In this document: positions 1-3,710 of the stretch, one piece after another
Layout: each line of letters begins with the position of its first letter
Position numbering within the stretch: the stretch's first letter is position 1
Origin: a virus
Taxonomy: Duplodnaviria > Heunggongvirae > Uroviricota > Caudoviricetes
IMG/VR virus record: IMGVR_UViG_2623620491_000007
DNA length: 4,934 nt
Strand: one strand, 5' to 3'
Position numbers and translations under genes: made by a program
Notes under the pieces: model-generated
What the model saw: only the letters and a program-made list of their open reading frames with translations
Databases searched by the model: none
What the model was told of the DNA's origin: nothing

Positions 1-228
1 ACAGAAACTGTGGCGGACATTGTGCAGTCGCTGCCATCGTTTACTGAAACGCGAGCGGATGACCTGGTTTTACCATCGCTGCATATGGCAAACCGCGAAT
101 TGCGTCGGGCGAAAAATCATGTTCAGAAGTGGGAGCGAGTCTGCGCCGCGCTGCGGGAGCTGAACAAGCACCGGGATATTGTTCGACAGATTACTGATTC
201 TTCCCGCCGTGTTGTATCGGAAAAGTGA
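1..228 (+). CDS. 3' end of an upstream phage gene (frame open from position 1, stop TGA 226-228); probably a replication-region protein given its position just before a ren-like gene, identity unresolved
   Basis: Frame 1 is open from the first base to TGA at 226-228; about 50% GC like the neighbouring phage genes; the next gene starts 16 nt downstream with its own SD. No motif recognised in the 75 visible residues. Confidence 0.5.
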   Translation, partial: TETVADIVQSLPSFTETRADDLVLPSLHMANRELRRAKNHVQKWERVCAALRELNKHRDIVRQITDSSRRVVSEK

Positions 229-896: not shown

Positions 897-979
897 TTAG
901 AACCTTGCTATGGACATGAAAATGTGTAACATGCAATAGATCTCTACACACAGCAGGATTCCTACACCAAGGAGTGTTT

Positions 980-1381
980 ATGATTAACGAATCCAGTCCT
1001 TTCCCAGACAACGAAATTATATCCTTCTATGACTGTACTGGCATGCCCATTTTTTATCTACATAGTGATGGTGAAAGTTTTTATCACTATGACGGAACCC
1101 CACTAGCCTATTTATATAATAATGAATATATAGTTTCATATTCAGGTCAGTATTTAGGTTGGCTATATAATGGGAGTATTATAGATTATAAAAATGGGGC
1201 TTATGTTTTTTTTACAGCTTATAGTTCTGGTGGGCCATCGCGACCAAGCCGAAAGTTTCGACCAAGTCGATTATCAAGAAAGAGCAGACCTGCTAAATTA
1301 AGTCGTAATAGTCGACCGTCACGACCTTCAAGACAAACCAGATGGAGCGAGCGAAGCAACATGAGTTTTTTCAGTAGTTAA
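980..1381 (+). CDS. Hypothetical small protein (133 aa) with a Tyr/Gly-rich repeated N-terminal domain and a basic Ser/Arg/Pro-rich repetitive tail
   Basis: SD AAGGAG at 969-974 lies 5 nt before ATG 980 (the ORF-track start at 974 is a GTG inside the SD). N-terminal half shows repeated motifs (FYDCTG..IFYL, SFYHYDGTPLAYLY, EYIVSYSGQYLGWLY, IIDYKNGAYVFF); C-terminal tail is SRPSRKFRPSRLSRKSRPAKLSRNSRPSRPSRQTR. Very AT-rich. Confidence 0.65.
   Translation: MINESSPFPDNEIISFYDCTGMPIFYLHSDGESFYHYDGTPLAYLYNNEYIVSYSGQYLGWLYNGSIIDYKNGAYVFFTAYSSGGPSRPSRKFRPSRLSRKSRPAKLSRNSRPSRPSRQTRWSERSNMSFFSS
1236..1335 (+). repeat. Degenerate in-frame tandem repeats (about 18 bp units, e.g. CGACCAAG at 1241-1248 and 1259-1266) encoding the SRPSR-type peptide repeats
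   Basis: Direct reading: CGACCAAG recurs 18 bp apart, with further TCGACC/CGACC units at 1312-1326; this corresponds to the repeated S-R-P-S-R peptide units in the protein tail. Confidence 0.5.
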
Positions 1382-1459
1382 ATTCTCGTTGTATTAAAAA
1401 ATAGATTGATTTGAAAGTTAGCATATTTACCTACTATCAAATAATGAAAAGGGTTAAAG

Positions 1460-2875
1460 ATGAGTAATCTTCCTACTACAGTAAATACAACCGCAGTAAC
1501 CACTGGTGTTGATAATTTCACAACGTCATTAACTACTTACCTCACCGATTTGAATCTTCCGGCAAAGGGCGTTTTAGTCGGCAATGATCAGAGGTACACT
1601 GTAATTGATAACTTCCCAAAGGTTATTGGTGGTATTGACAGTGCAAGGCGTTCAGATTCGTTATATCTATCAAAGTTTATTGCAGCGTGCGGCGCTGGCC
1701 TTTTTGATGCAGCACTCAATTTTTTATGGAATGAAACAGTAGTAAATTTGAGATGGAAGGTTTCCCTTAACGATATAGACTATTTTTATGACAGTATTGT
1801 CACTGACACAAAAAGAAGAGATAAGCTTAAAACTGTAGATGATTTAGTTAATATAGAGGAGTGGGAGCTTGTTAAGGGTTGCCACTTAACGGGATTACTT
1901 TCGGATATAGGTTTTAAACATCTTGATTATATAAGAGATATGAGGAACTGGGCTAGTGCAGCACATCCTAACCAAAGTCAGCTAACAGGATTCATGCTCA
2001 TCTCATGGCTTGAAACCTGCATCAAAGAAGTGATTGCGAAAGAACCAGAACCTTCTGCATTACAAATAAAGAGAGTACTATCTAACATCAGAGGCGCTAA
2101 CTTAGAAGGCGATGACTTAGCCCATATAAAATCTGCGATGGAAAGCTTACCTCAAGATGTTGTTGATTCTTTCTTAAGAACTATATTTGGGATGTATACT
2201 AATGATAACGCGGCTGTACAGGTTAAGAATAATATAAAAGGAATTGCAAAAAAATGTTGGGATCTTTCGTCAGAAACTACGAAGTATAGTTGTGGTATAA
2301 GATATCAATCTTTTGCAGCTAACGGAGAGAGAGCTAGGAAAGATGCGGCTAATGAGTTTTTAACTACTGTATCTGGTCTTCCATATCTTCCATCAGACTC
2401 TTTGGCTGTTGAAATATCAATCAGAGTGACAAATTTATACCAGGCCCATTTTGGATGGAATAATTTCCATAATGAACCTGCTCATGCATCCTCTTTGGCA
2501 GCATATATCTCCTCTGCTGGGAATGTCCCTGACTCAGTTCGATTTGAATATGTTAAGACTATAGTTTTGTGTTATTTGGGCAACAGCTATGGAGTGTCTA
2601 ATATGGCCGTTTCTTACTATGAAGAAATGATTGGTAAGTTCGGCGAGGCAGAGTTAAAAGAGTTCGTAAAAATAATTTATGATAAAGACGTGATATCTAG
2701 GCTTGCAACTCAAACATGTGCTTCTCGATATAAACATATAGCATCCAATTTTGTTAGCAGAACTACCAATCAAATAACCTCGCAAGCTCTTAATGCGATC
2801 ATAGCATCGACTGCTCTCCAGTTACCGAACCTATCGAAAGCAACGGCCTACGATAAACTTATTCGCTCATACTAA
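1460..2875 (+). CDS. Hypothetical protein, 471 aa, no recognisable catalytic or NTP-binding motif; candidate effector of a phage-exclusion/defence cassette
   Basis: Long uninterrupted ORF in AT-rich DNA; SD-like AAAAGGG at 1447-1453 lies 6 nt before ATG 1460; stop TAA at 2873-2875 is followed by an intrinsic terminator. Thr-rich low-complexity N-terminus (residues about 5-27). One R-x6-H element (R162...H169, RNWASAAH, nt 1943-1966) is reminiscent of, but not diagnostic for, HEPN-type Rx4-6H motifs. No Walker A, no nucleotidyltransferase, RT, TIR or Sir2 signatures seen by eye. Confidence 0.8.
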   Translation: MSNLPTTVNTTAVTTGVDNFTTSLTTYLTDLNLPAKGVLVGNDQRYTVIDNFPKVIGGIDSARRSDSLYLSKFIAACGAGLFDAALNFLWNETVVNLRWKVSLNDIDYFYDSIVTDTKRRDKLKTVDDLVNIEEWELVKGCHLTGLLSDIGFKHLDYIRDMRNWASAAHPNQSQLTGFMLISWLETCIKEVIAKEPEPSALQIKRVLSNIRGANLEGDDLAHIKSAMESLPQDVVDSFLRTIFGMYTNDNAAVQVKNNIKGIAKKCWDLSSETTKYSCGIRYQSFAANGERARKDAANEFLTTVSGLPYLPSDSLAVEISIRVTNLYQAHFGWNNFHNEPAHASSLAAYISSAGNVPDSVRFEYVKTIVLCYLGNSYGVSNMAVSYYEEMIGKFGEAELKEFVKIIYDKDVISRLATQTCASRYKHIASNFVSRTTNQITSQALNAIIASTALQLPNLSKATAYDKLIRSY

Positions 2876-3027: not shown

Positions 3028-3246
3028 GTGGTGACTGGTTGTTGTGTTCCATTTCTACAGAACAAAATCACAGAAACTATACCCAATAGTTGTATTGAAT
3101 CACTGACGAGACAGCCTCATATTTATCAGGACTGGTGTGCGTCTAATACAGGAGGTTGTCGTGCTGGTTCTCAAATGTGCGCTGGCTATTGCGGCTGTAA
3201 TGGCAATTTATTGTCTTGCTATTGTTCTTATGGATCGCCTTTTTGA
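3028..3246 (+). CDS. Possible small cysteine-rich protein (about 72 aa, 14 Cys); coding status uncertain
   Basis: ORF-track frame 3022-3246. AAGGAAG at 3015-3021 is too close to GTG 3022, so GTG 3028 or 3031 is the more plausible start. C-terminal CAGYCGCNGNLLSCYCSYGSPF is Cys-dense. No homolog recalled; it fills the gap between the cassette terminator and the hok promoter. Confidence 0.2.
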   Translation: MVTGCCVPFLQNKITETIPNSCIESLTRQPHIYQDWCASNTGGCRAGSQMCAGYCGCNGNLLSCYCSYGSPF

Positions 3247-3257
3247 CTGATTTCATA

Positions 3258-3286
3258 TTGGCGAGGTAACGGGAGTTAAGTAGAAT
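3258..3286 (+). promoter_or_regulatory. Candidate promoter of the mok/hok mRNA (-35 TTGGCG 3258-3263, 17 bp spacer, -10 TAGAAT 3281-3286)
   Basis: Hexamers with canonical spacing; the predicted start near 3293 gives a leader of about 113 nt before mok and a transcript of about 420 nt to the terminator, in line with hok-family mRNAs. The predicted 5' end is complementary to a segment downstream of hok. Confidence 0.35.
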
Positions 3287-3405
3287 GCCTGCGGGTGCTT
3301 GGGGCTATCTGTCTCAGGCATGAACACCAAAAGGCAGATAGAGAAGAGCCCCAGTTAACATTACGCGTCCTGCAAGACGCTTAACATTAATCTGAGGCTC
3401 AATCT

Positions 3406-3618
3406 ATGAACGGCAAATCTAGGTTAGCCTCTTACGTGCCGAAAGGCAAGGAGAAGCAGGCTATGAAGCAGCAAAAGGCGATGTTAATCGCCCTGATCGT
3501 CATCTGTTTAACCGTCATAGTGACGGCGCTGGTAACGAGGAAAGACCTCTGCGAGGTACGAATCCGAACCGGCCAGACGGAGGTCGCTGTCTTCACAGCT
3601 TACGAATCTGAGGAGTAA
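3406..3618 (+). CDS. mok: Mok-like reading frame: in-frame N-terminal extension of hok whose translation enables hok translation (70 aa)
   Basis: ATG 3406 is preceded by GAGG at 3394-3397 (8 nt spacing) and runs in frame through hok to the same stop. This mirrors chromosomal mokC/hokC annotation, where both share a stop, as I recall it. Confidence 0.5.
   Translation: MNGKSRLASYVPKGKEKQAMKQQKAMLIALIVICLTVIVTALVTRKDLCEVRIRTGQTEVAVFTAYESEE
3463..3618 (+). CDS. hok: Hok/Gef-family type I toxin (small membrane-depolarising peptide), 51 aa
   Basis: Translation MKQQKAMLIALIVICLTVIVTALVTRKDLCEVRIRTGQTEVAVFTAYESEE matches the Hok/Gef/RelF family: hydrophobic transmembrane helix followed by the conserved TRKxLCE..R..G..EVAAF/VF..YE block. 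Closest to HokD/RelF and Gef from memory. SD AAGGAG at 3448-3453 lies 9 nt before ATG 3463; stop TAA 3616-3618. Confidence 0.85.
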   Translation: MKQQKAMLIALIVICLTVIVTALVTRKDLCEVRIRTGQTEVAVFTAYESEE

Positions 3619-3676
3619 GAGACCCGGCGGGGGAGAAATCCCTCGCCACCTCTGATGTGTCAGGCATTCTCAACGC

Positions 3677-3710
3677 ACCCGCATTTAACCCGTTTCGGCG
3701 GGTTTTTTGT
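3677..3710 (+). terminator. Rho-independent terminator of the hok transcript
   Basis: GC-rich hairpin (AACCCG 3687-3692, loop TTTCGG, CGGGTT 3699-3704; alternatively ACCCGC 3677-3682 with GCGGGT 3698-3703) running into TTTTTTGTT at 3703-3711. Confidence 0.55.

Follow-up and report, generated by a model that had tools for sequence, protein, structure and literature searches.

Does the hok toxin gene carried by this viral DNA have a partner antisense gene, sok, on the opposite strand, and if so, where does it lie? The window, by which we mean the whole stretch of 4,934 nt that was analysed, comes from a Caudoviricetes record (IMGVR_UViG_2623620491_000007). A preliminary description listed weak promoter-like hexamers and a GC hairpin on its minus strand but could not place sok with confidence, and proposed either that the antitoxin gene is present but divergent or that it is missing or hok is controlled differently. 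We found that the locus is an ordinary, previously described prophage hok/sok toxin–antitoxin module of the hokW/sokW type. It is complete, with hok, mok and sok, and belongs to a type that was already annotated in 1999–2000 and was tested in 2021.

Organization of the hok/mok module

The plus strand of the window carries the following features of the toxin module:

3258–3286, plus strand: hok promoter, TTGGCG-17-TAGAAT, found by consensus scan (9/12 match), just 5' of position 3293, where the Rfam match begins
3293–3708, plus strand: predicted full-length hok mRNA, from RF01794 model positions 1–157 and the minimum free energy (MFE) fold
3406–3618, plus strand: mok leader ORF (70 codons), same reading frame as hok, an arrangement also seen for mokW and mokC
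3463–3618, plus strand: hok toxin gene, 51 amino acids, HokD/HokW type, from Pfam HOK_GEF
3687–3708, plus strand: intrinsic terminator of the hok mRNA, from a terminator scan

The Hok protein matched Pfam family PF01848 (HOK_GEF) with 81.6 bits against a cutoff of 22. It was 98–100% identical to HokD/HokW proteins, and proteins that were 100% identical to it were found in prophage contigs. The mok frame (ORF 3406–3618), which has GAGG 9 nt upstream of its start, overlaps hok from upstream, and its initiation region would be the target of the antisense RNA. In the MFE fold of 3293–3708 (z = -5.9), the tac element (3293–3304) at the 5' end of the hok mRNA paired in silico with a 3' fbi element at approximately 3668–3680, with 3675–3680 as the partner of the 5' end; this pairing of the two ends would correspond to the tac–fbi fold-back known from R1. 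Sok aside, the locus (hok promoter, mok, the 51-aa Hok, tac–fbi pairing and terminator) looks intact.

The neighbouring genes are typical of lambdoid prophages: DUF977/LygF, Rem and DUF1367/IrsA in the window, with RusA and Q in relatives. Homologues were present in 4,723 of the 5,426 complete E. coli genomes, where the RefSeq name is hokD. Near-identical hokD loci of the E. coli type also appeared in records attributed to unrelated genera, namely Acinetobacter idrijaensis (L019), Xanthomonas pisi (L025) and Actinobacillus phage vB_Apl-pPE4 (H70/H78). Two of these records are very short contigs (275 and 431 bp), pointing to contamination or misattribution and not to a real host range.

Several further elements were observed around the module. 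The interval from the DUF977/LygF gene to hok contains two cargo genes (974–2875, plus strand): the first encodes a 135-aa ‘Bflower’ (PF21784) protein with a tail rich in serine, arginine and proline, and the second is a 471-aa ORF that had no Pfam match. Other genes (DUF4209, alpha/beta hydrolase) occupy this spot in relatives, and it looks like a variable cargo site of the prophage. A putative 37-aa, strongly hydrophobic ORF (MRLIQEVVVLVLKCALAIAAVMAIYCLAIVLMDRLFD; 3137–3250, plus strand) stops just upstream of the hok promoter; a Pfam search of its translation gave no match. An Rfam match to isrK at 3627–3708 (plus strand), which overlies the 3' end of the hok mRNA with fbi and the terminator, scored 26.6 bits, far under the gathering score of 50. 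This candidate was rejected, and the match probably arose by chance or was driven by the terminator hairpin.

Strand of the Rfam match

A covariance-model search for Sok, proposed in the preliminary description, did return a match, although on the strand of hok. Rfam model RF01794, named ‘sok’, matched 3293–3468 on the plus strand over its full length (model positions 1–157) with 104 bits, against a gathering score of 59. The model also fell on the hok-sense strand in E. coli K-12, opposite the annotated sokC; in VT2-Sakai, opposite sokW; and in an R1-type plasmid. What RF01794 models is the leader of the hok mRNA, which it covers from tac up to the hok AUG. Since the model sits on the hok-sense strand, the match certifies a conserved hok/sok leader only, and we rejected it as direct proof of the antisense gene in the window as well as in K-12, R1-type and VT2-Sakai sequences. 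Pipelines that trust the strand of RF01794 would put sok on the wrong strand, and the strand that the model calls should not guide annotation of the antitoxin. A literature search for ‘CssrC’, an alias in the Rfam name, found nothing.

Probable sok promoter

Two hexamers on the minus strand were assigned to the sok promoter:

3444–3449, minus strand: sok promoter -35, TTGCCT; aligns with TTGCGC of R1, is invariant in 39 sequences of the hokD/W clade, and is the same in VT2-Sakai and 933W
3421–3426, minus strand: sok promoter -10, TAACCT (fits TANNNT), 17 nt past the -35; from sequence, conservation and the mutant of the equivalent site in Takada et al. 2021

We consider it highly probable that TTGCCT (3449–3444), the 17-nt spacer and TAACCT (3426–3421) on the minus strand form the sok promoter, and that sok lies at approximately 3414–3344 on the same strand. 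Both hexamers, as well as TAGATT at 3421–3416, had been listed in the preliminary description with exact coordinates. The promoter is on the strand opposite hok, is situated between the start codons of hok and mok, and would fire towards mok. The segment 3470–3420, which includes the -35, the spacer and the -10, was 100% identical to the corresponding sequences of 933W and VT2-Sakai. In R1, the minus strand reads TTGCGC, 17 nt, TATCCT, 7 nt, Sok; by this layout, the hexamers in the window are positional homologues of the R1 sok promoter. The R1 sequence used here was 100% identical to thousands of plasmids.

Calling these hexamers weak was fair. They matched the consensus at seven of 12 positions, and 260 sites in the window were equal or better by hexamer match, which justified the caution of the earlier reading. 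Sites of the form TTGnnn-16..18-TAnnnT numbered 12 in the window, compared to 10.1 ± 2.6 in shuffled sequences. By hexamer match alone, the sok promoter is at chance level; it stands above chance because of its position, its conservation and the published experiments, to which the earlier reading had no access. With a match of 7/12 and so many equal or better sites, inspection of the sequence alone cannot locate sok. A consensus promoter scan (threshold 9/12) and a simple terminator scan of the minus strand at 3340–3470 reported nothing. This negative result is not evidence of absence, as the scans were too strict for a 7/12 promoter and a bulged hairpin of 24 pairs.

Conservation was assessed in a comparison set of 53 genome loci and 80 viral loci encoding relatives of the Hok protein of the window. 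Among the 87 unique sequences, which are those captured by a pattern of the sok architecture, all 87 had TTGnnn followed, after a spacer of 17–18 nt with GTAAGAGGC at its end, by a -10-like hexamer. The -35 variants were TTGCCT (62 sequences), TTGACC (24) and TTGCGC (one), and the modal -10 was TAACCT (45). Across the 39 clade members with the same spacing, entropy was zero at both hexamers. The +1 position, 7 nt past the -10, was G in most sequences.

The 17-nt spacer (3427–3443, minus strand) holds a small hairpin that covaries between clades, with the forms GCC-UUUC-GGC in the window, GACC-UUAC-GGUC in hokC and GCGC-AAA-GCGC in R1. On the plus strand, this hairpin is located just upstream of the hok Shine–Dalgarno sequence. 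It is probably an element of the hok mRNA that overlaps the sok promoter.

Experimental data are available for the promoter of sokW. In an Sp5 lysogen, sokW RNA was seen by Northern blot and was gone after treatment with mitomycin C (Takada et al. 2021, PMC8621323). In the same study, hokW cloned with its own sokW was non-toxic, hokW cloned with a promoter-less sokW mutant was toxic, and sokW supplied in trans gave partial recovery of growth (PMC8621323). We mapped the oligonucleotides of that study onto the window. A search for one locus containing all Sp5 primers found none among the fetched loci, and VT2-Sakai and 933W were then taken directly. The complementing sokW fragment corresponds approximately to 3312–3466 and the hokW probe YO-597 exactly to 3451–3422. 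The mutagenic primer YO-421 changes the equivalent of 3420–3427 from TAGGTTAG to CCGGCTCG, which on the minus strand turns TAACCT into GAGCCG and yields the promoter-less sokW that gives no protection. As YO-421 alters exactly this hexamer, the TAACCT noted earlier is the experimentally supported -10 of an identical promoter. By analogy, we infer that the copy in the window behaves like sokW: it would produce a discrete, unstable antisense transcript that neutralises Hok, as is known for the near-identical sokW (PMC8621323).

Position and structure of the predicted Sok RNA

The RNA predicted downstream of this promoter has the following parts:

3344–3414, minus strand: predicted Sok (sokW-type) antisense RNA, 71 nt, by ungapped alignment transfer from the sokW misc_RNA of AF125520 and AP000422
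3401–3414, minus strand: putative recognition element, the Sok 5' tail (GCCGUUCAUAGAUU), which is complementary to the start codon of mok and to its flanks; from fold, conservation and analogy with R1
3346–3400, minus strand: stem-loop of Sok with 24 pairs, G·U wobbles among them (G3400 is paired to C3346); from fold, covariation and strand asymmetry
3365–3380, minus strand: apical extension of the stem-loop, GCGUC-UUGCAG-GACGC, seen as 16 inserted nt when aligned with the Rfam consensus, R1 and sokC
3336–3345, minus strand: presumed termination region, a pyrimidine-rich tail (UUCUCUAUCU) that follows the stem; from alignment with UAUCUUCUUU at the same place in R1

In both 933W (AF125520) and VT2-Sakai (AP000422), sokW is annotated opposite hokW as a 71-nt misc_RNA with its 5' end 9 nt inside mokW. 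The ends given here for Sok were taken from these annotations, themselves made by analogy, and mapped onto the window. They place the 5' end at G3414, which is 7 nt past the -10 and lies inside mok by 9 nt. For sokC of K-12, an overlap with mokC of equal length is annotated, and a start 9 nt inside mok is common to three systems (K-12 sokC, sokW and R1 Sok). R1 Sok as described by Faridani et al. starts with (G)ACUAGACAUAGGG and covers the mok AUG at the same distance (PMC1635323).

The predicted RNA, at 71 nt close to the 60–70 nt expected of Sok, combines a 5' tail over the mok AUG, a stem-loop and a U-rich 3' tail. Its MFE fold reached -34.8 kcal/mol (z = -6.2) and resembled the folds of R1 Sok and sokC. 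The first 7 nt were unpaired, and AUAGA (3407–3403) paired with a 3' UCUAU beyond the annotated end of Sok. For R1 Sok, pairing with the target is initiated by a single-stranded tail of 11 nt (PMC1635323). The GC hairpin had been placed correctly in the preliminary description (GCGTC at 3365–3369 and GACGC at 3376–3380 on the plus strand, with a 6-nt loop between them); it forms the apex of the Sok stem-loop, an extension that the hokD/hokW clade has in common. This extended form, with a 50-nt hairpin, was found in 50 of the 87 unique loci.

In an alignment of 30 sequences, 93% of stem cells were paired, compared to 33–52% when the partner was slid. Seven pairs had changed on both sides, and there were 36 such cells versus 11.4 in shuffles. 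Covariation alone has no power to separate the two strands, but G·U pairs do. The hairpin had three to five G·U pairs on the Sok strand and zero or one on the hok strand, and one U·G pair was invariant (30/30 sequences). Folding was more stable on the Sok strand in each of the 87 sequences, with means of -23.4 and -14.2 kcal/mol, a gap of approximately 9 kcal/mol. This asymmetry between the strands argues for selection acting on the minus-strand RNA.

The lack of a clear U-tract was also described accurately: the minus strand continues after the large hairpin with UCUUCUCUAUCU, which contains no uninterrupted run of U. The sequence after the stem is UUUUCUCUAUCU in most relatives and UAUCUUCUUU in R1, and by comparison with these tails, an interrupted U-tract is normal for Sok. 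Sok promoters fall short of the consensus and the U-tracts of Sok terminators are interrupted, so sok will routinely be “lost” in consensus scans and when a sequence is read by eye; the right test is homology to sokW, sokC or R1. The present result, which removes a false alarm of a missing sok, matters little.

Similarity to known hok/sok systems

The closest known system is hokW/mokW/sokW of 933W and VT2-Sakai/Sp5 from E. coli O157:H7. Like the window locus, it belongs to a lambdoid prophage, has mok in frame with hok and encodes a 51-aa toxin; its sokW shares the identical promoter (3470–3420), the 50-nt extended hairpin and the same 5' end relative to mok. The region was 92.6% identical overall, with a slightly different Hok C-terminus. 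The two Sok sequences differ at eight of 71 positions: six in the 5' tail or beside the mok start (3413–3409 and 3405), with the remaining two at 3371 in the loop and at 3346 in the U-rich tail.

The hok/sok (parB) system of R1 has the same gene order and logic, and its sok promoter occupies the homologous place (TTGCGC-17-TATCCT). It also shares the Sok 5' tail over the mok AUG, the stem-loop, the interrupted U-rich tail, the tac–fbi fold-back and the Rfam match to the leader. R1 Sok, however, is 64 nt long with a 38-nt hairpin, whereas the Sok of the window has an apical extension of about 16 nt. The start codons of mok and hok are 58 nt apart in R1, where the two genes use different frames, and 57 nt apart in the window, where they share one frame. 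The toxins are approximately 44% identical (PMC8621323), and the R1 system is plasmid-borne while that of the window is carried by a prophage. The earlier suggestion of a sok that is present but divergent was right about its presence, with the correct -35 and -10. Divergence holds relative to R1 Sok only (apical extension, different 5' tail); within its own clade, this sok has the sokW promoter and an RNA body with few differences.

Among the hok genes of K-12, hokC (gef) resembles the window in having mokC in frame and sokC reaching 9 nt into mokC on the opposite strand. The base of the sokC stem is likewise GCCUC...GGGGC, and it is followed by UUUUCUCUAUCU. In sokC, by contrast, the hairpin is short (32 nt), and of the two promoter hexamers the -35 is better (TTGACC) and the -10 poorer (CACTCT) than in the window; hokC is chromosomal and adjoins IS186. 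The hokD gene of the K-12 Qin prophage (relF; relBE-hokD) encodes nearly the same toxin and has the same 3' half of the mRNA. K-12-type hokD loci are truncated upstream and lack mok as well as the -10 and the RNA body of sok; the window represents the complete form. Homology to such loci (L008, L046 and matches with 54% coverage) breaks exactly at 3449.

Proposed regulation and alternative explanations

A mechanism can be proposed from R1 hok/sok and sokW (PMC1635323, PMC9841398, PMC8621323), with the anatomy and conservation taken from the window. A minus-strand sigma-70 promoter between the start codons of mok and hok would produce an RNA of approximately 71 nt (3414 to 3344), whose free 5' tail would be complementary to the mok translation-initiation region and whose remainder would form a long, G·U-rich stem-loop and a pyrimidine-rich tail. 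The full-length hok mRNA would be locked by tac–fbi pairing until slow trimming of its 3' end refolds it and uncovers the mok initiation region. Sok, which would be constitutive, abundant and short-lived, would bind the processed, refolded mRNA through its 5' tail; binding would block translation of mok and with it the coupled translation of hok, and RNase III would cleave the duplex. Once sok is no longer transcribed, for instance upon prophage induction, which was shown for Sp5, translation of the stable hok mRNA would follow and Hok would damage the inner membrane.

The window has a private change at 3346 (A to G on the plus strand, U to C in Sok), which is located just past the GGGGC of the stem and breaks the UUUU run of the relatives. 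The change turns a G·U into a G–C pair at the base of the Sok stem and an A–U into a G·U pair in the tac helix on the hok strand; as pairing is kept, it is structurally tolerated on both strands. It might alter termination or 3'-end formation of Sok. A weakened or decaying sok, in which the sub-consensus promoter and this change lead to too little Sok or to heterogeneous read-through RNA at a locus heading towards inactivation, would fit the 7/12 hexamers and the rarity of the change: an exact-match search found it in no IMG/VR contig and in none of the 5,426 complete E. coli genomes, in which the best match was 60/61 nt (98.4%). This is nevertheless very unlikely. The promoter is base for base that of the functional sokW, R1 Sok is a discrete 64-nt RNA with an equally interrupted tail (UAUCUUCUUU), and the change preserves pairing on both strands. 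Both reading frames (hok and mok) are intact, as are the promoter of hok and its terminator, and an intact toxin without its antitoxin would be counter-selected.

The overlapping hexamer TAGATT (3421–3416) could serve as the -10 of an allele-specific promoter, in which case Sok would lose approximately 5 nt from its 5' end and its recognition tail would be truncated. TAGATT agrees with the -10 consensus at four of six positions, compared to three of six for TAACCT, and it recurs in eight unique sequences with the same tail allele. On the other hand, it has no usable -35, as it is 22 nt from TTGCCT and the hexamers 16–18 nt upstream match TTGACA at no more than two of six positions. The other 11 tail alleles have TAACCTACATG or TAACCTACGTG in its place, whereas TAACCT is invariant, and mutating TAACCT was sufficient to abolish sokW function. 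Being allele-specific and without a -35 partner, TAGATT was rejected as the -10, and we regard this reading as extremely improbable. That the locus has no antisense regulator, with hok restrained only by the folding of its own mRNA (tac–fbi) or silent like K-12 hokD (relF), is almost certainly wrong. Loci of hokD without sok do exist (L008, L046), and the RefSeq/PGAP annotation of the homologous E. coli loci shows hokD only, with no sok feature, although this annotation is uninformative. Unlike the sok-less loci, which break at 3449 and have no -10, Sok body or mok, the window retains all three, including the mok start, and they are conserved throughout the clade; the strand asymmetry of the hairpin likewise points to selection on a minus-strand RNA. 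Neither a missing sok nor a different control of hok therefore found any support.

Allelic variation of the recognition tail

The conserved sokW-type promoter and stem-loop are accompanied by a highly variable 5' tail. Across the 39 members of the hokD/W clade, which are otherwise near-identical and have almost invariant promoter hexamers and stem-loops, the tail at 3414–3398 was hypervariable: 12 of its 17 columns varied, and the mean was 0.75 bit; within it, the CAU opposite the mok AUG was invariant. At least 12 discrete tail alleles were present among these sequences, including GCCGUUCAUAG and GUUCAGCAUGG. The same segment (3398–3414, minus strand) also specifies mok codons 2–3. As a tentative explanation, which the sequences suggest but which we hold to be somewhat less probable than its opposite, diversifying selection may keep the antitoxin of each prophage private; the window would then carry one such specificity allele, along with a change at 3346 that might alter the 3' end of its Sok. 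Under such selection, one prophage could not be lost under cover of the Sok of another. Where copies of the locus were co-resident in one genome, their tails were different in nine of the nine genomes examined.
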